NCBI GenBank assembly: GCA_963806495.1
Contig: CAWDYA010000007.1
Span: forward strand, 371,945-435,944
DNA from: an uncultured Acidobacteriota bacterium
GTDB taxonomy: Bacteria > Acidobacteriota > Polarisedimenticolia > JACPZX01 > DASXTC01
Length of the DNA: 64,000 bases
Direction of reading: 5' to 3'
Shown here: piece after piece, positions 1,515 through 21,964 of the stretch
How positions within the stretch are numbered: position 1 is the stretch's first letter
How the letters are laid out: every line of letters begins with the position of its first letter
Notes under the pieces: model-generated
Database searches by the model: none
Seen by the model: only the letters and a program-made list of their open reading frames with translations
What the model was told of the DNA's origin: nothing
Position numbers and translations under genes: made by a program

Positions 1515-3329
1515 ATGGCATACAAGCCGATCGAGAGTTACGGCGTCATCGGGGATCTGCACAGCGTTGCCCTCGTGGGAAACGACGGCTCCATCGACAT
1601 GATGTGCTTTCCCAAGTTCGACTCACCGTCGATCTTCGCCGCCCTGCTGGACGACGAAAACGGGGGATGCTTCCGGATCGCCCCGGTCAGCGAGGAGGGG
1701 CAGCGCAAGCAGATCTACCTGCCCGACAGCAACGTGCTGCTCACCCGGTTCCTCCAGGACGAGGGGGTCTCGGAGGTGTCGGACTTCATGCCGATCGAGC
1801 GCGAGGAGAACCTGCACAATCTCGTGCGCCGGGCCAAGACGATCCGCGGCGAGGTACGCTTCCGGATGACCTGCGCGCCCCGGTTCGACTACGCGCGCGC
1901 GGAGCACCGGGTCGAGAAGAAAGGCAGGGAGGTGCTGTTCGTCTCGCGTGGCGACGACAGGACGGCGCTGAGGCTCGTCTGTTCGGTCCCGGTCCGTATC
2001 GTCAACGGCGCCGCCGTGGCCGAGTTCACGCTGCGCGGCAGCGAGACCGCCTCGTTCGTCCTGGAAGAGGCGCGCGAGGACATCGAGTCTCCCGCCGGGT
2101 CCGCGGAGTTCGTCTCCGAGGCGTTCAAGGACACGGTGAACTTCTGGAGGCGCTGGATAGGAAAGAGCAGCTATGCGGGCCGCTGGCGCGGGATGGTGAA
2201 CCGCTCCGCCCTCACGCTCAAGCTGCTCACCTCGGCCGAGCACGGCTCGATGGTGGCGGCGCCGTCGTTCGGCCTGCCCGAGGAAGTGGGCGGCTCGCGC
2301 AACTGGGATTACCGGTACACCTGGATACGCGACGCGTCGTTCACGCTCTACGCCCTGATCCGTCTCGGGTACACGGACGAGGCGGCCTCGTTCATGAGGT
2401 GGATCGAGGCGCGGTGCGGCGAGCTCGAGCCGGACGGCTCGCTGCAGATCATGTACGGGCTCGACGGGCGGCACGATCTGTCGGAGCAGACGCTGCCGCA
2501 CCTGAAGGGTTACCGCGGCTCGTCCCCCGTACGCATCGGCAACGAGGCGTTCCGGCAGCTCCAGCTCGACATCTACGGCGAGCTCCTCGATTCGGTCTAC
2601 CTGTACAACAAGTTCGGCGAGCCGATCTCCCACGACCTGTGGGACAACCTCGTGAGGCTGATCGACTGGGTGTGCGCCAACTGGCGACGGGAGGACGCCG
2701 GGATCTGGGAGATGCGCGGAGCGACCCGGCAGTTCCTCTACTCCCGGCTGATGTGCTGGGTGGCGGTGGATCGCGGCATCCGCCTGGCGTCGAAACGCTC
2801 CTTCCCCGCTCCGCTCGACCGCTGGTACGGCGTGCGCGACTCCATCTACCGGGACATCTTCACCAGCTTCTGGGATCCAAAGCGCAAGGCGTTCGTCCAG
2901 TACGAGGGCTCCGGCGTGATGGACGCGGCGAACCTGCTGATGCCCCTCGTCCGGTTCATAGGCCCCACGGATCCCCGCTGGCTCACGACCCTCGCGGCGA
3001 TCGATGAGGACCTTGCCTACGACTCGCTGCTGTTCCGCTACAAGATCGAGGACGAGCGATCCGACGGGCTGGCCGGCCGCGAGGGGACCTTCAACCTGTG
3101 CTCCTTCTGGTACGTGGAGAACCTGTCACGCTCGGGTGACGTGGAGAAGGCCCGCTTCTATCTGGAGAAGATGCTCGGCTACGCCAACCACCTCGGCCTG
3201 TACTCCGAGGAGATCGGGCCGCGGGGCGAGCACCTCGGCAACTTCCCCCAGGCGTTCACCCATCTGGCGCTGATCAGCGCGGCGCATCACGTCGATCGGA
3301 GCCTCACGCAGGCGGGCGGAGCGCCTTGA
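1515..3329 (+). CDS. Glycoside hydrolase family 15 (glucoamylase/glucodextranase/trehalase-like)
   Basis: 604-aa ORF starting '[20 protein letters not shown]', full-length GH15-like N-terminal and catalytic-domain motifs, protein-like composition throughout. Confidence 0.85.
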
Positions 3330-3353
3330 GGCGGGTGCCGGCCGGAGCCGGCG

Positions 3354-4160
3354 TCAGCGGTCCAGGCCGACCGGCCGGGCGGCGGGCCGCTTCGCGCTCA
3401 CGGCGGCCCCGGCACGGGCGGTATCGAGCACGCGGGGCAGCGACGCCCCCGGCCCCGCCATGAGCTTTCTCCGGCCGAGGCGGTGCACGAGCGTCTCGTG
3501 ACGGGTCCTGAGCCCGAGCCTCACGCGGAGCCAGGCGAGGGTGCCGAGCGAGACGTTGATGATGCCGTCGGGCACCTTGGTCCCGGCCCGGTAGTACGGC
3601 ACCTCGACGGTCCAGGAGTTTTCGATCCGGTACCCAAGGCTGCCGGCGATGATCCCCAGCTCCTGCTCGCACGAGTACTTGTAGCCGTTGTAGTAGCTGA
3701 GCAGCTCCGGCACCTTGCCCACCCGGATCACCCGCAGCCCGCACTCGACATCCGCGTAGCGGTAGCCGCTCAGCAGGGAGGCGAACAGCGAGAGACCCCA
3801 GTTGCCGATCTTCTTGAAGCGCGGGTAGTGCGAGAAGTCGCGCCGCGTGAGGAGCATGTCGAGATCCTTCGAGACGGTGGTCTCCGCCAGGCTGTCGATC
3901 GAGTCGACCGTGTGCTGCCCGTCGGCGTCGAACGTATAGAGGAGATCGTCCGGTCTGAGTTCGCCGTCCTCGAGAAGCAGCGCCACGAGCGCGAGCCCGT
4001 CCTTGAGCGCGGAGGCCTTCCCCTTGTTGACCGGGTTGTCGATGACGTAGGAGCGCGGATGCCCCTGGCTCCACCTGGCCAGGATTTCGGGCGAGGCGTC
4101 CCGCGAGCCGTCGTTGACCGCGATCGTGAGGTCCATCCGGGCGCTGAACGTCGCGAGCAC
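3354..4160 (-). CDS. Glycosyltransferase family 2 (polyprenol-phosphate sugar transferase-like)
   Basis: ORF from a GTG start. The conserved GT2 N-terminus 'SEIAVVPVYNEAQNLER' continues in frame upstream to about 4211 with no ATG/GTG/TTG; an ATG at 4213-4215 is one base out of frame, so the true start is probably about 4215 with an indel just after it. 'DADGQH' motif present. Confidence 0.8.
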   Translation of the reverse strand: MLATFSARMDLTIAVNDGSRDASPEILARWSQGHPRSYVIDNPVNKGKASALKDGLALVALLLEDGELRPDDLLYTFDADGQHTVDSIDSLAETTVSKDLDMLLTRRDFSHYPRFKKIGNWGLSLFASLLSGYRYADVECGLRVIRVGKVPELLSYYNGYKYSCEQELGIIAGSLGYRIENSWTVEVPYYRAGTKVPDGIINVSLGTLAWLRVRLGLRTRHETLVHRLGRRKLMAGPGASLPRVLDTARAGAAVSAKRPAARPVGLDR

Positions 4161-4229
4161 CCGCTCGAGGTTCTGCGCCTCGTTGTAGACCGGAACGACG
4201 GCGATCTCTGATCATCGGGGCTCCATGCC

Positions 4230-5240
4230 TCATACCCAGCGCAGGATGTTCTTTACCGACTTGATGTTGAGATCGCCGAGGTAGTTGATCTCGATCGCCG
4301 AGTTGCAGCAGCACTCCGGGCACCGCGCGTAGGTCATGTCCGGCAGCGACTCGAACGCCTTCTTCACCCCGTCCCGCACGCAGTTGCCCCCCTTCGTCTT
4401 GGGGAGCCCCCGCATGTCGAAGCAGGAGTAGCAGTCGCCGTTCGTGTCGATGTAGCAGAACAGCTTGCCGGAGTAGCAGCGGGGGAACTTGTCGTACGTC
4501 CCGTTGAGCCGGTACGTGTCCCGGACGAACTCGAGCGTCGCCTCGGACGCGCCGATGTGCTTGTTGCGCTTCTTCTCCTCGATCAGCCACTCGACCGTGC
4601 GGCGGTGCTCGTCCTTGTCGGGATAGAGCGGATCGAGCCGGTCGCCGGCGAGATAGTGGTCCGACAGGTTTCCGAAATCGCAGTAAAAATCGAGCTCCTC
4701 GGCCTTTCGCACCACCCACTCGACGTAGTCGAGATCGCCCTTGGTGAGGGGCGTGAAGGTCCAGACCTTGATCCCGATCTCACGGAACACCTTGATCGCC
4801 TCGAGGGCTTTCTCCCAGGCGTCCTTCATGTTGCGCTGGCGGTCGTGGACCTCCTTCGGGCCGTCCAGGCTGATGAACACCAGATCGAGCTTGCGCAATT
4901 CCTCGATCTTCCGTCTCGCCAGCAGTCCATTGGAGTTCATGCTGGTGAAGATGCCGTGGCCTTTGGCCGTGTCGATCAGAGTGCCGATGTCGGCGCGCAG
5001 CGACGCCTCGCCGCCGGTCATCACCACGCGCTCGCATCCGAGCTCGCCCAGCTCATCGATGATCCCGACGAGCTGCGGGGTGCTCAGGTCGCGCATGTTC
5101 CTCAGGGGTATGTCGCAATACTCGCACCGCTGGTTGCAGCGGTCCGTAACGGACAAGGAGACGGCGAGAGGGCGTTTGGTGCCCAGAAAATGCGTCTGGG
5201 CGATCTTGGCCCCGGTCGTGATCTCCTGAAGGAGCTTCAT
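4230..5240 (-). CDS. Radical SAM enzyme with C-terminal Cys-rich SPASM/twitch-like domain (MoaA/PqqE-like)
   Basis: 336 aa; 'SVTDRCNQRCEYC' CxxxCxxC motif near the N-terminus; C-terminal region with 9 Cys ('CYSGKLFCYIDTNGDCYSC ... CPECCC'); AGGTG Shine-Dalgarno 6 nt upstream. Confidence 0.85.
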   Translation of the reverse strand: MKLLQEITTGAKIAQTHFLGTKRPLAVSLSVTDRCNQRCEYCDIPLRNMRDLSTPQLVGIIDELGELGCERVVMTGGEASLRADIGTLIDTAKGHGIFTSMNSNGLLARRKIEELRKLDLVFISLDGPKEVHDRQRNMKDAWEKALEAIKVFREIGIKVWTFTPLTKGDLDYVEWVVRKAEELDFYCDFGNLSDHYLAGDRLDPLYPDKDEHRRTVEWLIEEKKRNKHIGASEATLEFVRDTYRLNGTYDKFPRCYSGKLFCYIDTNGDCYSCFDMRGLPKTKGGNCVRDGVKKAFESLPDMTYARCPECCCNSAIEINYLGDLNIKSVKNILRWV

Positions 5241-5342
5241 CGAGACACCTCATATCCGGAAAGCTCATCCGACGCGCCGGGGGATACACGTACCCGCTCG
5301 GGGTGGCGCCGGGATGTGCCGCAGGGGTAGGCAGTGAGTTGT

Positions 5343-5371
5343 CTTATACCCGGTAAGAGTATAACTGTCAA
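5343..5371 (-). promoter_or_regulatory. Candidate sigma70-type promoter for the radical SAM / GT2 pair
   Basis: Minus strand reads TTGACA, 17-nt spacer, TATAAG in the 140-bp gap between the upstream GT2 stop and the radical SAM start. The -35 is consensus; the -10 has G at position 6. Confidence 0.4.
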
Positions 5372-5382
5372 GGAGTTTCGCG

Positions 5383-6123
5383 CTATTGTCCGTTTTTGTT
5401 CGTATTGTCCCTGGCCCCGGGGCCACCCGGCAGCCCGGGGGGCCGCCAGAGGAAGGCGACCTTCAGGATCGTCAGCAGTATCCGGGTCCCGTGCCTGACT
5501 CTTCTGAACTTCCGGATCCCACCGAGCCGACGCTCGCGGGTCACCGGCACCTCGATGATCACCAGACCGGCCCTGGCCGCCTTGAGGATCATCTCCGACT
5601 CCACCTCGAATTCACAGAACTCCCAGCGCAGGCCGCGCACCGCCTCCCGCCGGATGACCCGGTACGACGCGTTGATGTCGCTGATCTGGGTGCCGCACAG
5701 GAGGTTGGCGAGCCCCGTCAGGACGCTGTTGGCGCGCCTGTCGATCGGGCTGATCCCTCGGTCCCGGAAGACGCCCAGGAAGCGTGAGCCGTTGAGGAAG
5801 TCGGCGCCGGTGTTCCTGAAGGCGGCCAGGAGGGACGGCAGCTCCGCCGGGACGTCCTGGCCGTCGGAATCCATCAGGACGAGCGTCTCGCCCGCAGCCT
5901 CCGCCAGGCCCGCGCGCACCGCCAGGCCCTTCCCCTCGTGGCGCCGTTTCAGCACGCGTGCGCCGGCGAGCCGCGCCTGACGGGCGGTGGCGTCCGTCGA
6001 GCCGTCGTCCACGACGATCACCTCTCCGGTCTCCCCGATGGAGCCGAGAGCGCCGAGGACGCCCCGCACCACGTCACCCACGGTCAGTTCCTCGTTGAGG
6101 GCCGGGATGATGACGGAGATCAC
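5383..6123 (-). CDS. Glycosyltransferase family 2, DPM1/ArnC-like (polyprenol-phosphate sugar synthase-like)
   Basis: 246-aa C-terminal part of ORF 5383..7644: 'ISVIIPALNEE', 'VVDDGSTD', 'MDSDGQD'. GTG start at 6123 overlaps the deacetylase stop. The N-terminal 500 aa of the track ORF is low-complexity read-through and is excluded. Confidence 0.8.
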   Translation of the reverse strand: MISVIIPALNEELTVGDVVRGVLGALGSIGETGEVIVVDDGSTDATARQARLAGARVLKRRHEGKGLAVRAGLAEAAGETLVLMDSDGQDVPAELPSLLAAFRNTGADFLNGSRFLGVFRDRGISPIDRRANSVLTGLANLLCGTQISDINASYRVIRREAVRGLRWEFCEFEVESEMILKAARAGLVIIEVPVTRERRLGGIRKFRRVRHGTRILLTILKVAFLWRPPGLPGGPGARDNTNKNGQ

Positions 6124-6968
6124 GATCCATCCCTGGCCGCGTGATGCTCGCGGATCGAGCAGAAGCGGAACTCGCGCAGGAGCCGGGAGTACTTGGCCAG
6201 CGCGCCGCGCAGACCCCAGTAGTGATACCAGGTGTGCCGCGCGGGCAGGCCCGGCACGCGCGGCTGGTCGGCATCCAGCTCCCACGGGTGCATGTACACC
6301 ACGGCCGGTCGTCCCTTTCCGTTCATCCGCCGGAGCGCGGCGGCAGTGAGCGTGTAGGGCAGGAGCCGGAAGAAGATCCCACCCGCCACCGGGATCGTCA
6401 GTCCCCCGATCCTCACGGCCGCCGGCGGGTACTCGGTCAGGCCGTCCTGGATCGGGTGGATGTCGAGACGCGCGTTCTTGACACCGTACATCCAGGTGCG
6501 CAGCGGGAAGATGCTCGAGTCCACCCGGTAGCCGCTTCGGCTCAGCGCCGGCAGGGCCCAGGGGCACCGCTCCGTGATCGACCACGAGGGCGCCCTGAAT
6601 GCCACCACCGGCTCGCCCGCGAGCTCGGACAGCACTCCCGCCGAATCCCGAAGCTGAGTCTCGAACGCCTCCGGCGTGAGGGAGTAGACGAGATCGTGGT
6701 AGTAGCTGTGGCTCGCGATCTCGTGGCCTCCTTCGCGGATGCGGCGGATCAGTCCGGGGTGCGCGGCCGCAACGCAGCCCAGGGTGAAGAAGGTCGCCGT
6801 CGAGCCGTTTTCGGCGAGCAGCGCGAGCAGGCGGTCGGTCTGCGCCTCCACACGGCTCTCCAGAGCGGACCACCGCTCGCGCGGCAGGTCGAAATCGTTG
6901 CCGTGGAACCACTCCTCGACGTCGATGGTGAGTATGTTGCGCATGCTGGCCATCCTCAGGATGGGCAT
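6120..6968 (-). CDS. Polysaccharide deacetylase (NodB-like; resembles the EPS/PEP-CTERM-locus subfamily)
   Basis: Real part of ORF 6120..7715: 'MRNILTIDVEEWFHGND', 'HEIASHSYYH'. Start could be ATG at 6968, 6953 or 6944; upstream part of the track ORF is artefact. Confidence 0.8.
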   Translation of the reverse strand: MPILRMASMRNILTIDVEEWFHGNDFDLPRERWSALESRVEAQTDRLLALLAENGSTATFFTLGCVAAAHPGLIRRIREGGHEIASHSYYHDLVYSLTPEAFETQLRDSAGVLSELAGEPVVAFRAPSWSITERCPWALPALSRSGYRVDSSIFPLRTWMYGVKNARLDIHPIQDGLTEYPPAAVRIGGLTIPVAGGIFFRLLPYTLTAAALRRMNGKGRPAVVYMHPWELDADQPRVPGLPARHTWYHYWGLRGALAKYSRLLREFRFCSIREHHAARDGS

Positions 6969-6972
6969 TATA

Positions 6973-9207
6973 ATGCCGCGACCTGACTTGCCGAGCGAGC
7001 GGAGGACGTCTGCCTTGGGATCCGAAACAACCGTAACGCCCGCAGTGTCCGGAGCGGGACCCCGGCTCCGGGTCGCACTGGCCACGGGCCTGTCCACGGG
7101 CATCCTGCTGGCGCTGATGGAGACGGCGGGCGTGCTCGCAAGCGCCGGCGCCCCCGGGGCCGCGCCCCTGGACATCCTTGTCCTCGCGACCTGGCTGGCC
7201 GTGCCGTATGTGGCGGCCCTGGGCGCGCTCGCGGCGGTCCTCGCGCTGCTCGTCCGCCCCCCGGAGGCCGCCCGGGCCCTGACGGTGGGGCTGGCCGTCG
7301 CCGTCGCTCTCGCGATGTGGCTTCGTACCCTGCTGCGGCTTGGCGAGGGGACCGCGGCGTACCCGGTGCTGGAGCTGCTCCTGGCGGGAGCGGCCTGCGC
7401 CGCCGGGGCCGCCTTCGGAATGCTGGCCGGTCGGGCCCGGCCGGGCGGGTTCCGGCGGGGGCCCTTGCTCTGGGGAGGCCTCGCCGCCCTGGCCGCGCTG
7501 GTGGCGCAGAGCGGCAACGTATCGGGCGCGTTCGGCGCGCCGGGGACACCGGCGCCGCTCGCCTGGCGGGTGGGTCTGGCCGTCGCCGTGGGTCTGGCGG
7601 TGGCGGCGGCGAGGCGCTTCCTGCCAAGGCTCGGGTCTCTGCATCCGGCGGCCGGCCGGATGGCTCGCATCGCCGGATTCGTGGCGGCGGCCGGCTGGGT
7701 CGTCTTCTGCGGCAACGGTGTTGCCCGGATGCTGTCGGTGCCGGAGGTCGCGTGGACATCGTCGCTTCAGGGGGAGGGCTCCGCATCGAGGCCCAACGTC
7801 ATCCTGATCTCAATCGACACCTTGCGGGCGGATCATGTTTCCAGCTACGGCTACAGGCGGCGCACCACGCCGGGGATCGATCAGCTCGCCGCCTCGGGGG
7901 TCCTCTTCGCGCACGCCGTCTCCACGGCGAGCTTCACGACACCGGCGCATGCCTCCATGATGACCGGCCTTTTCCCCACCAGCCACGGGGCGCAGTACCA
8001 GAGCGAGAACCCCGATGCGTTCGTCATCGCTCCGATCGCGCCTTCCGTGCCGACCCTCGCGGAGATCCTCGAGGATCAGGGGTACGACACCGCGGGGTTC
8101 GTCGCCTCGCCCATGGTGGGGCGGCAGTTCGGCTTCTCGCGCGGCTTCCGGGTTTTCGACGACCACTATGATCGCCTCAGCTCGGTGCGCGGGCAGATGT
8201 TCGCGCGCACCACCCCGTTCCGACTGCTCCGGCGGGCCGGCATGTTCGACGCGCGGGATCTCGACGCCGAGCGCAAGGCGGACGAGGTGAACGCCGCGGT
8301 CGTGCGCTGGATCGAGGCCCGACGCGGCGCGCCCGCGCCGTTTTTCCTGTTCGTGCACTACTACGACCCGCACGCGCCGTACGCCGCGCCCGGGCGTCCG
8401 ATCGAGACGGACCCTGCCCCCCGTCACGTCGCGTACGATCTCGATCTGCTGCTGCGCGGCCAGTACACGCTTTCAGTCGGCGCTCGCGACGTGGTGGTCG
8501 CGCGCTACGACGAGGAGATCGCATACACGGATCGCGCGCTGTCGCGCCTGCTCGACGCGCTCGGCCGTTCGGTTCTCGACAACAGCCTGGTCATCGTCAC
8601 CTCGGACCACGGGGAGAGCTTCGGGGAGCACGGCCACTGGGGCCACAACATCCTCCTGTACGAGGATCTCCTCGACGTGCCGTTCATCGTCCGCCCCCCC
8701 GGCGGCGCGGCTGCAGGGCGCGTCATCGACGATGTCATCGTGCAGCCGACCGACATCCTGCCGACGGTTCTCTCGTGGCTCGGCATCCGTGCTCCCGCGG
8801 GGACGCAGGGCAGGGATCTCGCCGGCCTCATCCGCGGGGACGGCGGCGACGCGGCCGGCGAGCATGCCCCCGATCCTCACGTCCGGCAGCTCGCGTTCTC
8901 CGAGCTGGCCCGCAACGTCGGCTGGGTCCGTCGCTGGGGCCCCGCGCTCGACCGCGACCTGCTTGCGGCGCGGGCCGGGCGGTGGAAGTACATCCGTTCG
9001 TCGGCGGGGGCGGAGGAGCTCTACGATCTGCAGGCGGACGCCGCCGAGTCGATCAATCTGGCTTCGGCGGACCCGGTTGCCCTGGACTCGATGCGACAGT
9101 TGATGGACGCTTGGCGGCTCACCCAGACGCGGCATCTCGAAAACGAGAACACTCCCCTCGACGAGGGGCTGCTCGAGAACCTCAGGAGCCTCGGCTATGT
9201 CCAGTAG
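6973..9207 (+). CDS. Membrane-anchored sulfatase-like hydrolase/transferase, Thr-nucleophile type (LtaS/EptA-like), paralog 1
   Basis: Real part of ORF 6739..9207. Hydrophobic multi-helix N-terminus, then 'PNVILISIDTLRADH'. The sulfatase C-x-P-x-R position reads 'FTTPAHASMMTG'. Ends 'DEGLLENLRSLGYVQ'. Confidence 0.75.
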   Translation: MPRPDLPSERRTSALGSETTVTPAVSGAGPRLRVALATGLSTGILLALMETAGVLASAGAPGAAPLDILVLATWLAVPYVAALGALAAVLALLVRPPEAARALTVGLAVAVALAMWLRTLLRLGEGTAAYPVLELLLAGAACAAGAAFGMLAGRARPGGFRRGPLLWGGLAALAALVAQSGNVSGAFGAPGTPAPLAWRVGLAVAVGLAVAAARRFLPRLGSLHPAAGRMARIAGFVAAAGWVVFCGNGVARMLSVPEVAWTSSLQGEGSASRPNVILISIDTLRADHVSSYGYRRRTTPGIDQLAASGVLFAHAVSTASFTTPAHASMMTGLFPTSHGAQYQSENPDAFVIAPIAPSVPTLAEILEDQGYDTAGFVASPMVGRQFGFSRGFRVFDDHYDRLSSVRGQMFARTTPFRLLRRAGMFDARDLDAERKADEVNAAVVRWIEARRGAPAPFFLFVHYYDPHAPYAAPGRPIETDPAPRHVAYDLDLLLRGQYTLSVGARDVVVARYDEEIAYTDRALSRLLDALGRSVLDNSLVIVTSDHGESFGEHGHWGHNILLYEDLLDVPFIVRPPGGAAAGRVIDDVIVQPTDILPTVLSWLGIRAPAGTQGRDLAGLIRGDGGDAAGEHAPDPHVRQLAFSELARNVGWVRRWGPALDRDLLAARAGRWKYIRSSAGAEELYDLQADAAESINLASADPVALDSMRQLMDAWRLTQTRHLENENTPLDEGLLENLRSLGYVQ

Positions 9208-9360
9208 AAACTGCCCGACCATGGTGCGCCTGGCCGGACGGGGCGACCAGTGTGGAAGGCCCGGCCGGCGCGTTGGAAGGCCGCCGGCCGCCGGGGCAGG
9301 CGCATGCCGGCCGGGGCCGGCGCCCGGGGCATCCCGAGGTCTTCGCCGGGCGGCGCCAAG

Positions 9361-11583
9361 ATGAACGAAGTCAAGGGGTTGTCGGATAGCATGGAGCGCG
9401 GCGAGCGCACGGTCGTCGGGCAGTTTCAGCGAGTCACTTCCGGGTTGGTGGTGGCCACCGCCTCGGGTCTGCTCCTCGGTCTGATGGAGACGGCCGGGAT
9501 CCTCTCGCAGCACGGCGCTCCATCGGGATCGTCGATCGACATCCTCGTGACCGCCACCTGGCTGGCGTTGCCGTATGCCGCGACGATCGCGATGGCCGCC
9601 CTGATGGTCGCTTTCGCGGTTCCGGCGCCCGGTCTGTCGCGGGGGCTGGCGGCCGGGATCGGGGGCGGGGTGGTCCTGCTGCTCTGGATCAGGACGCTGG
9701 CGAACCTGGGAGAGGGGAGCGCGGCGTATCCCGTCCTGGAGCTGCTCGTCGTCGGCGTGGCCTGCGCCGGTGGCATGGCGGCCGGGATGCTGGCGGCGAG
9801 ACCGGCCCCGGGGGGAGGCCGGACGCTGATGATCGGGGCCGGTATGGCGGGGCTGGCGGCCCTGGTGGCGTCGAGCCGGAACATCCCCGGTCCTTTCGGC
9901 CGACCCGGGCCGCCCGCAGGCTTCGGCGGCCGGCTGCTCTGGGCGGTGATCGTTGCGGCGGCTGTGGCAGCCGTGATCGTGATGGCACGCGCCCTCGCCT
10001 CACGCGGGGAGGGCGCCCGGTGGCTCGTGCGGGGCCTTGCGGCCGCGAGCGCGGTCGGGTGGGTCATCTACTGCGGATCAGGTTTCGTCCACATGCTGGG
10101 TTGGTCGGGGTCCGAGCCTCGTCTGCCGGAGGCCGGCGCCGTCGAGCCGGGACGGCCCAACGTCATCCTGATATCGATCGATACCCTGCGTGCCGACCAT
10201 CTGTCGTGCTACGGCTACGGGCGGCCGACCACGCCCGGCATCGACGGGTTCGCGGCGTCCGCCGTGCTGTACCGCAACGCCTCGTCCACCGCGAGCTTCA
10301 CCCTCCCCGCGCACGCGTCCATGATGACCGGACAGTTCCCCTCGAGCCACGGCGCGACGTATCAGAACCGAGATCCGGGAAGCTTCACGCTGCGGGGCAT
10401 CCGTCCCGGCTCGCCGATGCTGGCGGAGATCCTGCGCGAGCGCGGATACGACACGGCCGCCTTCGTCAGCGGGCCGCTGCTGAGCCGGCACTTCGGCTTC
10501 GACAGGGGGTTCCGCATCTACGATGATCGGTACGACCGACTCCAGAGCGCGCGCGAGCGACTGTTCGCGCGGTCCTTCCTGTTCCGGGTCCTCTACCGCC
10601 TCGGCGTGTTCTCGGACCGCGATCTCGACGCGCAGCGCACGGCGGGGGAGGTGAACCCGCTCATGGACGACTGGCTCGCAAAGCGCCGGGGATCCACGAG
10701 ACCGTTCTTCCTCTTCGTCCACTACTGGGATCCCCACGGGCCGTACGCCCCGCCGGCCCCGCTCGACGAGCGGCCGGACGGGACTCCTATCCGGGTCGAC
10801 TACGACATGGACCGGCTGCTGATCGGCGACTACACGTACACGCCGGAGGCGCTTGCGGATCTGATCACGCTCTACGACGGCGAGATCCAGTGGGTCGATC
10901 GGCATGTCGCCGCGCTGCTCGACCGGCTGCGCGCCAACAGGCTGCTCGACGGCGCCCTGGTGATCCTGACCGCAGACCATGGCGAGAGCTTCGGTGAGCA
11001 CGATCACTGGGAGCACAGCCGGGTGCTGTACGAGGATGTGCTGCACGTGCCGTTCATCATGAAGCTGCCCGGGGAACGTGACGGCGGCCGCGTGGTCGAG
11101 GACGTCGTCGCGCAGCCCACGGACATCCTTCCCACGGTGCTCGCCGAGGCGGGGATTCAGACGCCGCCAGAGGTCGAGGGGCGGAACCTGCTCGCCTTCC
11201 TCGAGCCGGACGGTGACGCAGGTGCGTCCGGGCAGGCCGAGTCGCACGTCCGGGGGCGCGGGCTGGCGTTTGCGGAGCTCGATCGCAACGTGGACTGGCC
11301 CGAGCGATGGGGCGCCCGGTTCGACCGGGACCTGGTCTCGGCGCGGACCCTCCGTTACAAGTACATCCACTCCTCCACCGGCGAGGAGGAGCTGTACGAT
11401 CTGCGGACGGATCCGGGCGAGCTGACCAATCTGGCGTCCGTGGATCCGTCGGCGGCGTCAGCGATGCGACAGCTCGTCGAGGCATGGCGCAAGGCACTCT
11501 CGATCGCGTCGCCGGATGAGCGACAGGAGCAGATCGATGAAGGGTTGCTGGAGAATCTCAGGAGCCTCGGCTATGTCCAGTGA
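9361..11583 (+). CDS. Membrane-anchored sulfatase-like hydrolase/transferase, Thr-nucleophile type (LtaS/EptA-like), paralog 2
   Basis: Real part of ORF 9250..11583, start 'MNEVKG'. Same architecture as paralog 1 ('PNVILISIDTLRADH', 'FTLPAHASMMTG') and identical C-terminal tail 'DEGLLENLRSLGYVQ'. Confidence 0.75.
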   Translation: MNEVKGLSDSMERGERTVVGQFQRVTSGLVVATASGLLLGLMETAGILSQHGAPSGSSIDILVTATWLALPYAATIAMAALMVAFAVPAPGLSRGLAAGIGGGVVLLLWIRTLANLGEGSAAYPVLELLVVGVACAGGMAAGMLAARPAPGGGRTLMIGAGMAGLAALVASSRNIPGPFGRPGPPAGFGGRLLWAVIVAAAVAAVIVMARALASRGEGARWLVRGLAAASAVGWVIYCGSGFVHMLGWSGSEPRLPEAGAVEPGRPNVILISIDTLRADHLSCYGYGRPTTPGIDGFAASAVLYRNASSTASFTLPAHASMMTGQFPSSHGATYQNRDPGSFTLRGIRPGSPMLAEILRERGYDTAAFVSGPLLSRHFGFDRGFRIYDDRYDRLQSARERLFARSFLFRVLYRLGVFSDRDLDAQRTAGEVNPLMDDWLAKRRGSTRPFFLFVHYWDPHGPYAPPAPLDERPDGTPIRVDYDMDRLLIGDYTYTPEALADLITLYDGEIQWVDRHVAALLDRLRANRLLDGALVILTADHGESFGEHDHWEHSRVLYEDVLHVPFIMKLPGERDGGRVVEDVVAQPTDILPTVLAEAGIQTPPEVEGRNLLAFLEPDGDAGASGQAESHVRGRGLAFAELDRNVDWPERWGARFDRDLVSARTLRYKYIHSSTGEEELYDLRTDPGELTNLASVDPSAASAMRQLVEAWRKALSIASPDERQEQIDEGLLENLRSLGYVQ

Positions 11584-11589: not shown

Positions 11590-12754
11590 GTGGGCCATCT
11601 GAAGCGGTTCGCGCTCAACGTCGCGGTGCTGGGCGCCGCCAGCCTCGTGGCCCTGCTCTTCGCGGAAGGGGTGCTCCGGTTCGCCGCCCACAAGGTGCTG
11701 CACGGGGGGGAGTGGGCGACCGCGGGCCAGATCTTCCGCAAGATCGACCCACCGGTCGGTTTCAGTCTTCAGCCGGGCTCCACCCAGATCCTCGTGACCG
11801 GAGGCGCCTACACGTCGCGTGCCACCATCAACTCAGCCGGCATGCGGGATGTCGAGCATGCGCTCGAGCCGGCCCCCGGCGTCAAGCGGATCCTCGTGCT
11901 CGGCGACTCGTTCATGTTCGGGCAGGGTGTCGAGATGGAAGACACTCTGCCGCGCCGGCTGGCGGGGCTCCTGCCGGGGGTGGAGGTGATCAACACCGGG
12001 ACGCCCGGCTACGATCTGGGCCAGTACTACCTGCTGTACGAGGACAGGGCCTACCGGTACAAACCCGACCTGGTGCTCGTCGGCTTCTTCATCAACGATC
12101 TGGCTCGTGCGCGTGAGCTCGACGTGACGTACGGCGAGGACGGGTTGCCCGTCTCGTACCAGCGGAGCGAGGAGATGATAGCGAAGGATCTACGCCGGGG
12201 CCCCGCGCGGGCTCACCGGGGCGGTCTCGTCGTGGTTCAGGGATCATTCGCTGCTCTACGTCCTGGTGCGCAAGCGGCTGGACAATCTGATGGCGGGCCG
12301 GCGCCGCCCCGCAGCGGAATCAACGGACGATCGCGCGGCCGACACGCCGTATCTGTCGGTGTTTCGCAAGCCCGATGCGGACGGGGGAGGGGCCGCGGAC
12401 TGGGCCCGGGCCTGGCGGATCCTCGACGCGCTCAAGCGCAGCGTCGAGACACACGGGGCGCGTTTTGCCGTCATCATGGTCCCCGCTCCGTTTCAGACAT
12501 CGGACGCGGCGTTCGGTACGTGGGTCGAGTGGGCGGGTGCCGAAGGGGAGGACCTGTCACGCAGCGAGCCGCAGGAGATGATGAAGTCCTGGTGCGCGCG
12601 CTCCGGCACGCCCTGCCTGGATCTGCTTCCCGTCTTCGAGAAGGGGGATCGCGACACGCTCTACTTCCCGTACGACATGCACTGGACCGCCAGGGGGCAC
12701 GCAATGGCGGCACGCGCCGTTGCGTCCTTTCTCGAGGCGCGCGGTCTGCCGTGA
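11590..12754 (+). CDS. SGNH/GDSL-family hydrolase (frameshifted)
   Basis: N-terminal part in ORF 11590..12765 ('LGDSFMFGQGV' block I); C-terminal part in ORF 12266..12754 ('YDMHWTARGH' block V). The frames switch between about 12182 and 12240 in a GC-rich run. Confidence 0.65.
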
Positions 12755-14737
12755 TCAGAAGGTGATCGTGTATCGCGCGTGGTACGAGAAGTGCAGCCGG
12801 CTCTGCGGCACCGTGGCGGCCGGCGCGGGCGAGAGCATCCGGATGTCGAAGCTGCCGGGCGTGACCACGAACTCGCGTCGTTTCTTTCCCTCGACGTAGC
12901 AGAACTGCCCGTCGTCGAAGACCAGGCCGACCCCCTGATCGCCGGTGTTGTCGATGACGAGTCGCGGCAGTCCGAGTCCCGGGACGACGACGCGGGAGAT
13001 CTCCGGCAGGGGCGGCGGTGGCTCGGGCGCCCTGGCCTTCTTTTTCTTCTTTCCCTTGGCCGGTGGCGCGGGGGGAGCCGCGAGCGGATCGATCGGCTTG
13101 ATCACGCGATCCGTCAGGCGCAGGCGTCCGCCGTCGTCTACCATGAGCGAGACGATCCGGACGCCATCGGGGACCTGCTGGTGAAGGATCGCCTTGCCGG
13201 CCCGCCGCAGCATCGAGACGGCGTCGGCGAGATGATCCTGTCTGACGCCCAGGGCTGCGGCGAAACCGGGAGCGGCCGCCGGGTCGGTCAGGTAGGACAG
13301 CTCGGGCGCATCGACATAGCTTTCGAACGGGTGGTCCGTGGGCAGACCCTTCACGCTCGCCTGATCGAGCGGGTCCCCCTCGGCCGGGATGAACAGGCCG
13401 ATGACGAGCCGCGATTCCCCCGCGTTCTTGCGCAACGGGTAGACCTTTGTCGTCTCGGTCACCTGCGCGTCCTCGACCCGCATGAGCTGAAGCGTCTCCG
13501 AGTCGAACAGATACGGGGGCAGGCCGTCGAAGGCCATGCCGATGGCGGAGCGCGGCTGCTCACGCTCGACGGGATACGTATCGACGCGCCCGCTGACGCT
13601 CCCCGGCAGACAGCAGTGTGCAGGGTCGAACGTCAGGCTCGCGTTGTCCAGCACCGTGAGCGTGTCCGGCAAATCGTGCACCGTCCGCCAGGCCGGCAGG
13701 AGGGCGTCATCGAAGGCGTCCGCGTCCTTTTCGATGAGGACGTTGTAGGCGCCCGGATCGAGCTCCACTTCGAGGGGTGTCTGACCGATGTAGTAGTCGT
13801 ACTCGGTCGCCTCGCGAAGCTGGGTGGCCGCCGGTGAGACGTAGACCGAGCAGCCCTCGGGCACCGAGGTCACCCAGACCCGATCGCGCGCCGGGTCGGT
13901 CGGCCGCGCCGGCGGACCCTCCACCTGGGACAGAGGCACGGCGACGACGTCCTCCGCCACGAGCGGCGCGACGGGCGCCACCGATGCGGCCTGGTTCACG
14001 GCGCTGATCACCTCATCGGTGGCCCCCGCTTCGCGAAGCGCGAGCGCCTCCTCGAGTGTCAGCGGCGCTGCCATGCCGCGCGTGGCGACGGTCGTCGCCA
14101 CCTCGGACGGCTCCTCCCCGGACTCCAGCATCCCGATCACCTCGTCGGCGGTCATCGGCTCGTGCGGCGTGCCGGTGGCCCCGGGCGCCACGGTCGCGCC
14201 GCCACGTGCGAGTGCGAGCACGATTTCGTCGGGCAACCCCTTCTCTCTCTGGGCCAGGAGAGTGTCGATGTCGGGGACCTCGTCGAGCCCCTCGCCGGCC
14301 ACCCGTGCCACAATCTCTTCCACGGGGGTCCCCTTGCGGTGCATCCTCAGCACCTGCTTCACCGACAGTGCTCCGGTGGCGGTCTCCGACCCCGTCTCCG
14401 CCTCCGGTGGCGGCGCGGGCGGTGCGGCCGCGGGCTCCATCGTCCCGGCCATCCGCACGATGAGCTCGTTGGAGGCTCCCACCTTCTTCAGCCGGATCAG
14501 CTCGTCCACCGTCAGATCGAATGTGGCGCCAGTCCGCTTGATGCGGGAGATCAGCACGGACGAGGAGACCCCCTCGCGAAGCATCTGGATCACCTGGGGG
14601 AGCGTCAGGGAGATCTCTCCTTCGGGAGCGGCCTTGGGCAGGCCCTGCGGTCCCGCGACCAGGGCGCAGGGAGCCAGCAGGAGGATCGCCAGCATGGATG
14701 CGAAGAGAACCTGCGTGCGGGGAATCCGTGCCGCCAT
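12755..14737 (-). CDS. Secreted PEGA-domain protein with N-terminal tandem helical repeats
   Basis: Real part of ORF 12755..15646: signal-like 'MAARIPRTQVLFASMLAILLLAPCALVAG', three ~45-aa repeats of the 'LTVDELIRLKKVGASNELI' type, PEGA-like 'VWVTSVPEGCSVYVSP...GQTPLEV', poly-Lys 'KGKKKKKARAP'; GAGGAGG Shine-Dalgarno upstream. Confidence 0.6.
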   Translation of the reverse strand: MAARIPRTQVLFASMLAILLLAPCALVAGPQGLPKAAPEGEISLTLPQVIQMLREGVSSSVLISRIKRTGATFDLTVDELIRLKKVGASNELIVRMAGTMEPAAAPPAPPPEAETGSETATGALSVKQVLRMHRKGTPVEEIVARVAGEGLDEVPDIDTLLAQREKGLPDEIVLALARGGATVAPGATGTPHEPMTADEVIGMLESGEEPSEVATTVATRGMAAPLTLEEALALREAGATDEVISAVNQAASVAPVAPLVAEDVVAVPLSQVEGPPARPTDPARDRVWVTSVPEGCSVYVSPAATQLREATEYDYYIGQTPLEVELDPGAYNVLIEKDADAFDDALLPAWRTVHDLPDTLTVLDNASLTFDPAHCCLPGSVSGRVDTYPVEREQPRSAIGMAFDGLPPYLFDSETLQLMRVEDAQVTETTKVYPLRKNAGESRLVIGLFIPAEGDPLDQASVKGLPTDHPFESYVDAPELSYLTDPAAAPGFAAALGVRQDHLADAVSMLRRAGKAILHQQVPDGVRIVSLMVDDGGRLRLTDRVIKPIDPLAAPPAPPAKGKKKKKARAPEPPPPLPEISRVVVPGLGLPRLVIDNTGDQGVGLVFDDGQFCYVEGKKRREFVVTPGSFDIRMLSPAPAATVPQSRLHFSYHARYTITF

Positions 14738-14820
14738 CGAACGCCTCCTCGGTGTGTCCCCGTGAACGGCCGGATCGCCGCTGCGGGCCGGTGCATTATA
14801 AAGGATGCCGTGCCCGCCGG

Positions 14821-16074
14821 CTAATCGATCTCCATCAGCCGCTCGCTGGGGTCGGACCGGTGCATCTCGGGGATGACGGCCGCCGCGGCAGGCCGGGGCG
14901 CCGGGGCGGGCGGGGAAGGCCGATTCGTCACCGCCGGAGCAGCCGCCGTCTGCCGGGCCCCCGCCAGAAAACGGCGGACCTCGGGAGCGAGGTCGGGCGG
15001 CTCGGGCCCGTTGAGGGTGATCCAGAGCCGCAGCAATGGATCGGCGAACAGATAGCCGCGGCCCTCGCGCTGGATCAACCCCACCTCCAGCAGCCACGAG
15101 AGATAGTCGATCGCCGTGGGCAGCGAGATGCCGAGGTGACGCGCGACACGCGAGAGATTCGCCCCCTCTTCGGAGGCGAGGAGCTGCAGGATGCTGCGCA
15201 CCGCGGCATGGCCCCGGCTGCGTTCCACCAGATGGTGGTAGTCGAAGCGGCACTCCTGATGCAGCGCGCCGTACGGCGGGCTCAGCTCGGCGGCGAGCGC
15301 TCCGGGCAGATCGCTTCCAGTCGCGACACGCCGGGCCAGGATCTCGAGATATGCCGGATGGCCGTGGGTGGCCTTCAGCCAGAGGTCGATCCCGTCCCCC
15401 GTACCGGCCGGCGCGACGCCGAACCGATCGAGGAGGGCTGCGATCTCGAGCGCGTCGAGCGGCGGCAGCGCGACTCTCATCAGGCCCCGGCCCGCCTCGG
15501 CGGCCCGCGCGCCGATCTCGTCGATGAGGGGCGCCGGCCGCGAGGCGGGGCCCGCCGTGGCCACGATCGCCAGATGAGCGCTCCCGGCGAGCCGTCGCCC
15601 CAGGATCGAGGGCCACTGCTTCAGCCCGGCGTGACGTGACAGGCATCCTGCCTCGCCCAGGTCGTCGACGAGCAGGATGAGCCGCTCGCCGGCTTCGTCT
15701 GCCGCCGCACCGGGGTACGACATGGCGAGATCGAGCAGCAGGGATGGATTCGGCTTCCGGCGGGCCCGTTCCGTCTCGATGGCGTGGAGCAGGTCGCGGG
15801 CCGGTGGCTCGGAGGGCATGGACCCATCACCGGACGGCGCAAGCGCGCGCGCCACGATCGGGGGCAGATGACGGGCCACCGACACAGGTCCGGCGCACAG
15901 CCTGTCCATCTCGACGAGCGCGCAGCGCGAGCCCGCTGCGGCGAGACGCCGCTGCATCGCCCTCAGGAGGGTGCTCTTGCCCGCGCCGCGGGGCGCCTCC
16001 ACGACCTGCACCGGCGGTGTGTCGTCGAGCGCCGCGGCGAGAAGCTCCTCCTCGAGGAGCGTGCGCGTCGTCAC
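14821..16074 (-). CDS. AAA-type ATPase with C-terminal winged-HTH (archaeal-ATPase/DUF234-like)
   Basis: 417 aa; Walker A 'APRGAGKST', Walker B-like '[10 protein letters not shown]', C-terminal '[28 protein letters not shown]'. Start ATG overlaps the hutU stop (ATGA). Confidence 0.7.
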
Positions 16075-17759
16075 GGACGGTCCCGCTCCGGTGGCGGCAT
16101 CATCGGTATCCTCACGCCGCGTTCACGAGCGGCCTGGATCGCCTCCGGGTAGCCGGCGTCGACGTGACGCATCACTCCGGTTCCCGGATCCGTTGTCAGC
16201 ACCCGCTGCAGCCGCGCCCGTGCGGTGTCGGTGCCGTCGGCGACGGTCACCATCCCGGCGTGGATCGACAGGCCGATGCCGACACCGCCACCGTGATGCA
16301 CGGAGACCCAGCTCGCACCGGCCGCGGTGTTCAGCAGCGCGTTGAGTATCGGCCAGTCGGCGACCGCGTCGGTGCCGTCCCGCATGCCTTCGGTCTCGCG
16401 GTTCGGGGAGGCGACGGAGCCGGAGTCGAGATGGTCCCGGCCGATCACGATGGGGGCCTTGATCTCGCCTTTCGCGACCAGGTCGTTGATGATCAGGCCG
16501 AACCGGGCGCGCTCACCGTATCCGAGCCAGCAGATCCGGGACGGGAGACCCTGGAAGGCGACACGCTCGCGCGCCAGACGGATCCACCGGCAGAGCTGCG
16601 CGTCCTGCGGGAACGCCTCGAGGATCGCGTCATCCGTGCGGTGGATGTCGCCGGGATCCCCGGAGAGAGCGGCCCAACGGAACGGTCCCTTCCCCTCGCA
16701 GAACAGGGGACGGATGTAGGCGGGCACGAACCCGGGAAAGTCGAACGCGTCCGCGACCCCCGCAGTCTTCGCCTGACCGCGCAGGTTGTTGCCGTAGTCG
16801 AACACCACGGAGCCGGCCTTCTGCATCGCCAGCATGGCGCGTACCTGCGAAGCCATCGCGCCCATCGCCCGCTCGATGTACTCTGGCGGATCGGAAGCCC
16901 TCAGTCGCAGCGCCTCCTCGTAGCTCATCCCGTTGGGGACGTAGCCGTTGAGATTGTCGTGCGCGCTGGTCTGGTCGGTGACCATGTCGGGAGCGATGCC
17001 CCTCCTGACGATCTCGGGGTAGACATCGGCGGCGTTTCCCAGCAGTCCAATCGAGATCGGCTCGCCGCGCTCCCGGTGCCGTGTGGCCGTCTCGAGCGCC
17101 TTGTCGAGATCCGTTTCCATCAGGTCGCAGTACCGGGTGGACAGACGCCGCTCGATACGATCCCGGTCGACCTCGACGGCCAGCACCACCGCCTCGTTCA
17201 TGGTCCCGGCGAGCGGCTGCGCGCCGCCCATGCCGCCGAGACCCGCGGTCAGCAGGAGCCTGCCCTTGAGCGACCCGCCGAAATGCCGGCGAGCAGCGGC
17301 GGCGAACGTCTCGTACGTCCCCTGCAGGATCCCCTGGGTGCCGATGTAGATCCAGGAGCCGGCCGTCATCTGGCCGTACATCATGAGCCCTTCGCGCTCC
17401 AGATCGCGGAAGTGCTCCCAGGTGGCCCAGGCCGGCACCAGCATGGCGTTGGAGATGAGGACGCGGGGAGCGCCCGGGTGCGTCGTGAAGATCCCCACGG
17501 GCTTTCCCGACTGCACGAGCAGCGTCTCGTCGTTTCCCAGCTCCTTGAGCGAACGGACGATCGCATCGAAGCACTCCCAGTTGCGCGCCGCCTTGCCGGA
17601 GCCTCCATAGACGATCAGCTCGTCCGGCTTCTCGGCCACCTCCGGGTCGAGATTGTTCATCAGCATGCGCATCGCGGCTTCCTGCTCCCACCCTTTGCAC
17701 GCGAGCGTCGTACCGCGCGGCGCGCGAATCGTCCTTTTCATGGTCGTCTTCTCCATCAT
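16071..17759 (-). CDS. hutU: Urocanate hydratase
   Basis: 562 aa, full-length urocanase-like sequence ('[10 protein letters not shown]', '[16 protein letters not shown]'). Confidence 0.9.
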
Positions 17760-20841: not shown

Positions 20842-21939
20842 TCAGCGAGCGCCGCCATGCATGCGGATGGCCCTTCGCAGAAGCTCTTCGAGGCGATCCA
20901 TGTTGGCCGAAAGGTCGCCTTCCTTCTCCACGAGCGTGCGGTTCACGGGTGCCGCTGCCTTGCGCAACGCGCGATCCTCGATCGCTCGCTCGAGGGCCAC
21001 GCTGAGCGAGACGGCGTCTCCCGGCTCGAAGAACAGCCCCGTCTCGCCCTCACGGATCCATCCCCGGTTGGCCCGGATCCGGCTCACGACGGGAAACAGG
21101 CCGCAGGCCATCGCCTCGAGAAGCGAGGAACTGGTCCCGTCGCTCAGCGAGGCGGAGACGTAAACGTGAGCCGACCGGAGCAAAGCACGCAGGGTGTCGT
21201 GGTCGACCTCTCCGGCGAACGTGACCGACTCGCCCAAGCCGAGTGAGGCGGCCTGCGACCGCCGGCGCTCCAGGTCCGGTCCGCCGCCTACCAGTGTGCA
21301 GCGCAGCGGCGGGCCCGCCCCTTTCAGCCTGGCCAGCGCCGCGACGAGCGTCTCGTTGCCGTAGACCGGCTCCTGCCGGCGGGTACAGACGATGTGGATG
21401 GGCCCGTCTGCCTCGTCTTCGGCCGCTGCGGGAGCGAAGAAGGATGTGTCGACGCCCACGGGGAAGCAGGCGATCTTCTCGGGGGTCACGCCGCAGGCCA
21501 CCAGCTTCTCGACGAGTTCCTCGGAGACGGCGTGCACGAGCCGCGCCCGCCCGCACACGTATCGCATCATCGGCCCATGCAGACGTCCTCCCGGCAGATA
21601 GCCCGCCTGTTCCAGCACGTCGCCACCGCGTGCCGAGACCACCAGCGGCCCCCTCCAGGCGAGGGCGGCCGTCATCCCGTTGGAGCTCAGATAGGTGGCG
21701 AGGACGACATCGGGGGCGAAGCCGGAAAGCAGTCGGCGGACGCGTGGCACCCTGGCGAGGAACCGGAGCGGGCCCGGCATCTCGAAACGGACGGGCCGAT
21801 CGAGGTGGACGACACGGACACCCTCCAGCGGGTTGGGGCTGAACGAGAGCACGAGGACCTGATGGCCGCGTTGCAGGAGCTGGCGGGCGTAGTGTCTGGT
21901 CCAGACAGCGTTGGTATGCGCCACCAGCGCGACCTTCAT
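20842..21939 (-). CDS. Glycosyltransferase family 4 (GT-B, group 1)
   Basis: 365 aa with the C-terminal GT4 'E.GxxxxE' region ('GWIREGETGLFFEP'); immediately downstream of the AsnB-family gene. Confidence 0.8.
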   Translation of the reverse strand: MKVALVAHTNAVWTRHYARQLLQRGHQVLVLSFSPNPLEGVRVVHLDRPVRFEMPGPLRFLARVPRVRRLLSGFAPDVVLATYLSSNGMTAALAWRGPLVVSARGGDVLEQAGYLPGGRLHGPMMRYVCGRARLVHAVSEELVEKLVACGVTPEKIACFPVGVDTSFFAPAAAEDEADGPIHIVCTRRQEPVYGNETLVAALARLKGAGPPLRCTLVGGGPDLERRRSQAASLGLGESVTFAGEVDHDTLRALLRSAHVYVSASLSDGTSSSLLEAMACGLFPVVSRIRANRGWIREGETGLFFEPGDAVSLSVALERAIEDRALRKAAAPVNRTLVEKEGDLSANMDRLEELLRRAIRMHGGAR

Positions 21940-21964
21940 CTCGCGTCACCTCTATGCAGGCCTG

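Follow-up and report, generated by a model that had tools for sequence, protein, structure and literature searches.

The subject of this analysis is a four-gene operon in a 64,000-nucleotide stretch of DNA from an uncultured Acidobacteriota bacterium (contig CAWDYA010000007.1 of assembly GCA_963806495.1). This whole stretch, whose G+C content is about 68%, is called the window below, and all position numbers refer to it. Four co-directional genes on the minus strand, spanning 3354-6968, encode a polysaccharide deacetylase, a family 2 glycosyltransferase (GT2-A), a radical S-adenosylmethionine (SAM) enzyme and a second family 2 glycosyltransferase (GT2-B). We give an even chance to the reading that this operon is a glycan or glycolipid tailoring module, in which the radical SAM enzyme carries out carbohydrate tailoring within a setting of GT2 and deacetylase functions; that the enzyme acts on the lipid-linked sugar itself is a narrower proposal contained in this reading, and is advanced only tentatively. 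The substrate is in any case taken to be a sugar and not a peptide, a role as peptide or sulfatase maturase being unlikely. The evidence consists of the gene identities and fold classes, the conservation of the cassette and of its internal promoter, four conserved cysteines in the radical SAM protein, and the enrichment of glycan genes around its family. An earlier note on the same DNA had suggested radical chemistry on a lipid-linked sugar, and the gene context speaks in favour of that suggestion, the substrate being something that we infer. Radical SAM enzymes that tailor sugars are known from antibiotic pathways (BtrN, BlsE, DesII and AprD4) and from two cases concerning lipid head groups (HpnJ and Cds), and to our knowledge none has been described within a carrier-lipid glycosylation module of the Dpm1/ArnC type. 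What is most likely new here is, thus, the placement of sugar tailoring by a Twitch-type radical SAM enzyme in a module of Dpm1/ArnC-type GT2s plus a deacetylase.

When the radical SAM protein is considered by its domains, PF04055 (4.5e-28) is the sole Pfam match of its 336 residues in a scan at E<=0.01. The cysteines of the CNQRCEYC motif (C35-x3-C39-x2-C42) are invariant and are predicted from the sequence to form the SAM cluster, and the GGE motif is conserved as well. The earlier note had described this motif together with a C-terminal domain holding nine cysteines; both are present, the nine cysteines lying within residues 255-312, but conservation is restricted to four of them. Across 158 family sequences, C255 is retained in 100%, C273 in 99%, and C307 and C310 in 97% each, whereas C262 (70%), C312 (49%), C287 (32%) and C270 and C311 (at most 5% each) are less conserved, C262 and C270 being replaced already in a relative at 82% identity. 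A single auxiliary [4Fe-4S] cluster is predicted, with the four conserved residues as its ligands. SPASM proteins are recognised by at least seven conserved C-terminal cysteines (CX9-15GX4C ... CX2CX5CX3C ... C) that ligate two auxiliary clusters, and the SPASM model (PF13186) neither matches the window protein nor appears in the precomputed Pfam annotation of its close homologues; hence, of the label radical SAM/SPASM given before, only the first half can be kept. Since four cysteines and not at least seven are conserved, the protein is best regarded as a Twitch-type enzyme with a single auxiliary cluster, and its organization corresponds to that class: a radical SAM core followed by a truncated SPASM fold (a beta-hairpin plus a helix) with ligands for a single predicted cluster. 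In the number and spacing of these residues (C-x17-C...C-x2-C) it resembles the Twitch enzyme BtrN, the 2-deoxy-scyllo-inosamine dehydrogenase of butirosin biosynthesis, whose single auxiliary cluster we take to be fully ligated by four cysteines in the same pattern.

Placement by hidden Markov models (HMMs), which had been proposed as a check, puts the protein outside every characterised family. The best NCBIfam match is TIGR03961, the “PTO1314 family radical SAM protein”, with 87.8 bits against a cutoff of 306. This is the only full-length alignment (residues 21-318 against positions 19-306 of a model of 332), and it concerns a hypothetical, uncharacterised equivalog of which the window protein is not a member. 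The NCBIfam models for PqqE (67 bits against a cutoff of 381), MftC (61 against 265), HpnH (52), MoaA and NirJ/Ahb all stay far below cutoff, while anSME and HpnJ do not occur among the best 25 of 73 matches, these 25 all being far below their cutoffs. Where family members carry a name, it is no more specific than “radical SAM protein” or “MoaA/NifB/PqqE/SkfB family”, and a literature search found no published study of this family or of TIGR03961/PTO1314. A word-indexed search gave just 23 matches, which suggested a rare protein; this was overturned by an exhaustive profile search, which returned 4,024 representatives of 50%-identity clusters at E<=1e-30, the top 150 of them all full-length (316-381 residues) and above 300 bits. 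Sources of the family include Omnitrophota, DPANN archaea, Elusimicrobiota, Planctomycetota and Deltaproteobacteria, among others.

The arrangement of the four genes as an operon, claimed before on the basis of the letters alone, holds at its coordinates (Table 1) and is syntenic in five independent relatives (L001, L011, L012, L172 and L174), whose radical SAM proteins are 82-88% identical to that of the window. The order deacetylase-GT2-radical SAM-GT2 is complete in L001, L011 and L012, and is seen in L172 and L174 as far as their short contigs reach. L012 is labelled Ca. Polarisedimenticolia (Acidobacteriota). The L011 cassette (85% identity, on the 4.9-kb contig DASROJ010000090.1) carries the label “Patescibacteria group” and was probably mis-binned. 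Third-position G+C is 0.91-0.94 in all four genes, the same as in the remaining window, and they are therefore regarded as native coding genes. A sequence scan of the four proteins found no hydrophobic, transmembrane (TM) or signal-like stretch, so that they would act on the cytoplasmic side. No intrinsic terminator was predicted within 3000-7800, and a convergent GH15 trehalase-like gene lies 24 nt from the end of the operon. The GT2-A gene starts with a GTG that overlaps the stop codon of the deacetylase gene (GTGA), as noted previously.

Between GT2-A and the radical SAM gene lies a gap of 142 nt (140-180 nt across relatives), in which the promoter-like element reported earlier is present and, moreover, phylogenetically conserved. 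Its -35 hexamer TTGACA (5371-5366, minus strand) is separated by a 17-nt spacer from the -10 hexamer TATAAG (5348-5343). The pattern TTGACA-N17-TATAA has a single occurrence in the 64 kb and none in 100 shuffles; a scan for consensus promoters skipped the site, because it demanded T as the final base of the -10 hexamer. In the window, L001, L011, L012, L172 and L174, the block AAAnnCCTTGACA, the block GGTATAA and the 17-nt spacing are invariant, whereas the remaining gap has diverged, which argues for a genuine internal σ70-like promoter serving the radical SAM gene and GT2-B. Directly upstream of the -35 hexamer, six relatives share an almost unchanged 8-nt block (GAAACTCC, 5379-5372), a possible UP-like element or site of a regulator. 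The gap has no Rfam match at E<=1, and the idea of a riboswitch or leader RNA was dropped.

Both glycosyltransferases had been described as being of the polyprenol-phosphate type, and this is borne out in so far as both are most similar to DPMS and ArnC, although equivalog cutoffs are not reached. GT2-A (PF00535 at 2e-23; the same 246-residue product is the gene call in a public collection) has the GT-A fold and the DxD motif, and its nearest solved sequences are the DPMS of P. furiosus (5mlz, 1.7e-15) and ArnC (2e-13). Among NCBIfam models it scores 119 bits with AglJ (cutoff 325), 82 with the dolichyl-phosphate hexose transferase, 55 with PpgS (cutoff 370) and 47 with ArnC (cutoff 529), without reaching any curated equivalog cutoff. 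GT2-A can thus be described, as far as sequence comparison goes, as a short, TM-less glycosyltransferase of the Dpm1/AglJ/ArnC type, and GT2-B (PF00535 at 4.9e-10 for the ORF, or open reading frame, 3354..4160) as a DPMS/ArnC-like glycosyltransferase of the GT-A fold. In keeping with this type, a homologue 44% identical to GT2-B stands ahead of two DUF2298 genes, which we take to encode GT-C-like membrane proteins. The deacetylase matches PF01522 at 3.3e-18 and, over its C-terminal part, DUF3473 (PF11959) at 1e-36; with TIGR03006, the “XrtA system polysaccharide deacetylase”, it scores 271.5 bits against a cutoff of 276.2. Its start may be ATG 6968, 6953 or 6944, and its relatives are 274-279 residues long. 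Between this gene and the first of two divergent sulfatase-fold genes, the segment 6947-6994 is promoter-like on both strands around a shared core, ATTATAAT (TCGGCA-16-TATAAT on the minus strand and TGGCCA-16-TATAAT on the plus strand). These matches overlap ATG 6968, and the deacetylase therefore probably begins at ATG 6953 or 6944.

GT2-B shows an irregularity at its N-terminus. In the five relatives the protein starts M-x-x-(K/R/H)-I-A-V-V-P-x-Y-N-E, with P6, N9 and E10 invariant in the family, whereas in the window the conserved ATG (4215-4213) is one base out of frame (+1) with the gene body, whose frame is open from 4211 behind a TGA at 4214-4212 and reads TGA-S-E-I-A-V-V-P-V-Y-N-E. This frame offers no canonical start before GTG 4160, and the resulting ORF (3354..4160) lacks the invariant N-terminal strand IAVVPVYNE; the source gene call is shorter still (260 residues), and either start removes the first strand of the fold. 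The frameshift may be either an assembly error or a recent inactivation. A second apparent frameshift is found within 10 kb, in an SGNH/AlgX-like gene (11590-12765, plus strand) that is split over two frames near 12200, with the GDSL match in the first half of a 391-residue ORF and the AlgX match in the ORF 12182..12754; an assembly error is therefore likely to lie behind both.

The linkage of the radical SAM gene to glycosylation genes extends beyond the close relatives: the neighbourhood check that had been proposed shows an association with Dpm1/ArnC-type GT2s that recurs at 36-39% identity. For instance, L004 (38%) carries GT2-radical SAM-GT2 with 4-nt overlaps, followed by DUF6541, in surroundings that hold three PMT_2 (GT-C) genes, a sugar-1-phosphate nucleotidyltransferase and three epimerase/dehydratase genes of the short-chain dehydrogenase/reductase (SDR) type. 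The order in L091 (36%) is GT2-radical SAM-DUF6541, and in L179 (39%) a GT2 gene is divergent from the radical SAM gene, within a cluster of PMT_2, GT1/GT4, further GT2, DegT, YdjC and five other radical SAM genes. This association was quantified by counting as glycan genes those for GT2, DegT, GT-C or deacetylase, with unrelated radical SAM genes of the same scans (below 120 bits with the family profile) as controls, and with seven metagenome-scan loci at >=200 bits included among the family loci. Of the 66 family loci, 23 have a glycan gene within 300 nt, as against 4 of 89 controls (Fisher p 8.5e-7, or 1.5e-5 when the window clade is counted once), and 32 have one within 8 kb, as against 6 controls (Fisher p 2.3e-9); adjacency to glycan genes is enriched about ten-fold. 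The deacetylases beside the family belong to three unrelated folds: CE4 in the window, PIG-L in L007 and YdjC in L009 and L179, the last presumably the fold of HpnK.

In L007 (1-21038, from a groundwater metagenome), L009 (1-20987), L013 and L179 (1-16987), the radical SAM gene belongs to a glycan cluster of very large size that holds four to six such genes. Their radical SAM proteins are of the Twitch, SPASM, B12-binding and Tes/TrsS-like types, and they are accompanied by PMT_2, GT2, DegT, YdjC or PIG-L, U32 peptidase and POR/TPP or FAD oxidase genes. The glycans or lipids made by such clusters, which come from Omnitrophota and further uncultured lineages, may be heavily tailored by radical chemistry. 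In L010 (10001-11784), a gene for a UbiA-family prenyltransferase directly follows the radical SAM gene, with a GT2 gene 4 kb downstream, an arrangement that recalls the decaprenyl-phosphate ribose and arabinose pathways.

The enzyme classes of the operon and their order match three known schemes. In the scheme of ArnC and ArnD, the undecaprenyl-phosphate-Ara4FN synthase and its deformylase, the likeness concerns the two GT2s, both closest to ArnC/DPMS, and the translational coupling of a CE4-family deacylase to a GT2; elsewhere in the family, ArnB-like DegT and ArnT-like PMT_2 genes lie around its members. In contrast, the window operon lacks ArnA, ArnB, ArnT and ArnE/F, the Arn pathway has no radical SAM counterpart, the window GT2s are devoid of the C-terminal TM helices of ArnC and DPMS, and the deacetylase matches the XrtA-type model TIGR03006 and none of the ArnD models in NCBIfam at E<=0.01. 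The second scheme is that of aminoglycoside pathways, with the glycosyltransferase BtrM, the deacetylase BtrD, the Twitch dehydrogenase BtrN and the DegT protein BtrS; glycosyltransferase, N-deacetylase and DegT aminotransferase classes like those of BtrM, BtrD and BtrS also surround the present radical SAM family. In the third, which leads to the cyclitol ether of hopanoids, a glycosyltransferase (HpnI) attaches an (N-acetyl)hexose to a lipid, a deacetylase (HpnK) unmasks the amine and a radical SAM enzyme (HpnJ) rearranges the sugar ring, and the calditol synthase Cds provides a related radical SAM precedent on a lipid-linked sugar (PMC13459092). Glycosyltransferase, N-deacetylase and radical SAM enzyme are likewise encoded together in the window, L001, L011, L012 and L172, as an analogy and not as orthologues: HpnJ has a B12-binding domain (TIGR03471) whereas the window protein is without PF02310, HpnK is of the YdjC type whereas the window deacetylase is of CE4, and neither hopanoid nor glycerol dialkyl glycerol tetraether (GDGT) genes occur near the window operon.

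On the strength of this match in classes and order, a four-step scheme can be proposed, whose order of steps, acceptor and chemistry we infer. First, GT2-A, as a peripheral Dpm1/ArnC-like enzyme, would move an N-acetyl-hexosamine from a nucleotide sugar onto a phosphorylated acceptor, likeliest polyprenyl phosphate. The translationally coupled cytoplasmic CE4 deacetylase would then strip the N-acyl group, a step that ArnD performs following ArnC, and HpnK following HpnI. In the third step, the 5'-deoxyadenosyl radical of the radical SAM enzyme would take a ring hydrogen, so that the sugar could be oxidised, decarboxylated, epimerised or ring-contracted, the fully Cys-ligated predicted auxiliary cluster serving as electron acceptor or relay. 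GT2-B, being DPMS/ArnC-like, would finally add or load a second sugar; the product would then cross the membrane by flipping and serve a GT-C or some other envelope transferase whose gene lies elsewhere.

It is nevertheless important to stress that a number of points weigh against a glycan-tailoring module. The operon itself contains no flippase, GT-C or nucleoside diphosphate (NDP)-sugar gene, the nearest PMT_2-like gene being 45 kb away, and the frameshift of GT2-B means that the module is possibly defective here, or the assembly wrong. GT2-B homologues at 44-45% identity are located in a pel-like locus or ahead of DUF2298 genes, and no homologue of this radical SAM family adjoins them. These unlinked homologues ruled out the idea that GT2-B travels with the radical SAM gene in other lineages. 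Adjacency to GT2 is not universal in the family, many clades carrying instead DegT, a carbamoyltransferase (plus GH57) or a second radical SAM paralogue, and one clade (Fermentibacteria and neighbouring metagenome-assembled genomes, several of them unclassified) has no adjacent glycan gene. In addition, the neighbourhood HMMs were built from genes of the family loci, which favours detection in those loci.

Among the alternatives, the one that survives best, although we regard it as rather doubtful, places the radical SAM enzyme at an earlier stage, acting on a soluble nucleotide sugar such as UDP-hexuronate or UDP-HexNAc, with the GT2s transferring the unusual donor and the lipid carrier never being a substrate. 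The two closest sugar-acting structures, BlsE and DesII, do use nucleoside- or nucleotide-linked sugars, and the radical SAM protein is without a membrane segment. BlsE, the cytosylglucuronate C5-decarboxylase of blasticidin S biosynthesis (PDB 7VOB), is 19% identical to the window protein, with an HMM alignment that covers the N-terminal core only; its gene sits in a nucleoside-antibiotic cluster and the enzyme acts on a cytosine glycoside, whereas the window gives no sign of a uronic acid substrate. DegT-type aminotransferases act on NDP-keto-sugars or inososes, and their genes are directly adjacent to the radical SAM gene in 13 family loci; the nucleotidyltransferase and the three SDR genes of L004 point the same way. 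However, the operon of the window clade has no NDP-sugar enzyme, the radical SAM gene comes after those for the deacetylase and GT2-A, and in L004 and L091 there is translational coupling between it and a GT2. The deacetylases ArnD, HpnK and BtrD, which follow a glycosyltransferase, act on the transferred sugar, and tailoring may therefore occur after transfer here too; none of these counter-arguments is decisive.

An improbable further alternative is that a Btr-like logic, with no lipid carrier, yields a soluble product in the form of a pseudo-oligosaccharide or glycoside, for example an aminocyclitol, a compatible solute or a metabolite resembling a thiol cofactor. Scores for a GpgS-like fold fit this possibility, as does the lack of a membrane segment throughout the operon proteins.

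The maturation of a neighbouring protein, which the earlier note had raised, can be imagined in two forms: the enzyme could be an anSME-like maturase for the divergent sulfatase-fold proteins, or it could mature an unannotated small peptide of the RiPP type (ribosomally synthesised and post-translationally modified peptides). SkfB, anSME, CteB, SuiB and PqqE are indeed among the best sequence and fold matches, and in the window as well as in L001 the opposite strand carries two sulfatase-family genes immediately upstream. Yet this is a very improbable reading. The anaerobic sulfatase-maturating enzymes have two auxiliary clusters with eight cysteine ligands, whereas four cysteines are conserved here; in particular, anSME (PDB 4K36) has two auxiliary clusters as compared with the one predicted for the window protein. 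The two tandem sulfatase-fold paralogues (PF00884 at 7e-50 and 2e-42), which may or may not belong to the module, have T-T-P-A-H-ASM-M-T-G and T-L-P-A-H-ASM-M-T-G where formylglycine sulfatases have C/S-x-P-x-R; no formylglycine can therefore be made in them, and sulfatase maturation was dropped on account of this Thr in place of Cys/Ser. Each has 5-6 N-terminal TM segments followed by a domain of the alkaline-phosphatase/sulfatase fold. Together with the motif, this indicates a Thr nucleophile and an architecture like that of the LtaS/EptA-type transferases, not that of genuine sulfatases. A third paralogue, built likewise of 5-6 N-terminal TM segments and a sulfatase-fold domain, is encoded 20 kb away. 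The pairing of such a gene with the divergent deacetylase, seen also in L001, is confined to close relatives, while distant relatives of the radical SAM gene retain glycan genes and not sulfatases. As for a peptide substrate, the window protein starts about 25 residues before its cluster motif and lacks an N-terminal extension like a RiPP recognition element (RRE), whereas the RRE-bearing SkfB, CteB and SuiB align from residue 100-117. A comparison of the 140-180 nt gap among six relatives revealed no conserved small ORF or precursor peptide, an exhaustive micro-ORF scan not having been extended to the flanks outside the operon, and no protease or ABC exporter is found nearby.

Finally, modification of a lipid tail or a cofactor (Tes/GDGT-MAS-, HpnH-, MoaA- or NirJ/Ahb-like), to which the proximity of GT2s would be incidental, is the least probable of all, since every score falls far under the family cutoffs of 225-650 bits, the neighbourhood holds no haem, molybdopterin, hopanoid or ether-lipid gene, and both the cassette order in five relatives and the GT2 linkage in distant ones are maintained.

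Table 1. Coordinates of the operon, its internal promoter-like element and the sulfatase-fold genes of the window
Feature	Position	Strand	Model or basis
Deacetylase (CE4/NodB + DUF3473)	6120..6968	-	PF01522 + PF11959
GT2-A, 246 aa	5383..6123	-	PF00535
Internal promoter-like element	5343..5379	-	TTGACA-N17-TATAAG, conserved in relatives
Radical SAM enzyme, 336 aa	4230..5240	-	PF04055
GT2-B, frameshifted near start	3354..4215 (uninterrupted ORF 3354..4160)	-	PF00535
Sulfatase-fold membrane protein 1	6739..9207, start uncertain	+	PF00884
Sulfatase-fold membrane protein 2	9250..11583	+	PF00884
Third sulfatase-fold paralogue, 20 kb away	25266-26918	-	Paralogy to 6739..9207 and 9250..11583

Past the sulfatase-fold genes follow the SGNH/AlgX-like gene, an ORF of 963 residues, hut genes and purA. 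The 963-residue ORF (12755-15646, minus strand) has no Pfam or NCBIfam match over its C-terminal 681 residues (12758-14800), and its upstream end (14821-15646) overlaps a candidate ORF (14821-16122) that resembles an AAA/HTH regulator. Genes of the exopolysaccharide (EPS) type are scattered over 20845-23890 (minus strand), 54686-56713 (plus) and 59004-60266 (plus), and include an amidotransferase (578 bits against 817), a GT4, a chain-length determinant (185 against 279) and a PglF-like dehydratase, all below the XrtA/PEP-CTERM cutoffs; a PMT_2/Agl23-like GT-C is encoded at 49976-51604 (plus). Together these EPS genes and the GT-C may form a dispersed exopolysaccharide system, and none of them is near enough to be assigned to the operon.

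Uncultured bacteria and archaea with chemically uncharted envelopes are the main hosts of the family to which this radical SAM enzyme belongs, and the compact four-gene operon with its own promoter is a tractable entry to this large and uncharacterised family: assigning the reaction here could cover the family as a whole and uncover a new envelope sugar. Should the enzyme turn out simply to dehydrogenate or epimerise a nucleotide sugar, this would be a useful finding, though not a surprising one. If, as is tentatively proposed, the enzyme works at the level of the carrier, it might be the first radical SAM enzyme to tailor a monosaccharide on a polyprenyl-phosphate carrier, between two Dpm1-like synthases and after carrier-level de-N-acetylation. 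The product of such carrier-level tailoring would be an envelope sugar of the keto, amino-pentose or carbocyclic type, obtained by an oxygen-independent counterpart of DprE1/E2-, ArnA- or HpnJ-type chemistry, and the family would then drive the formation of unexplored, radically modified glycans in Omnitrophota, DPANN archaea and Acidobacteriota.

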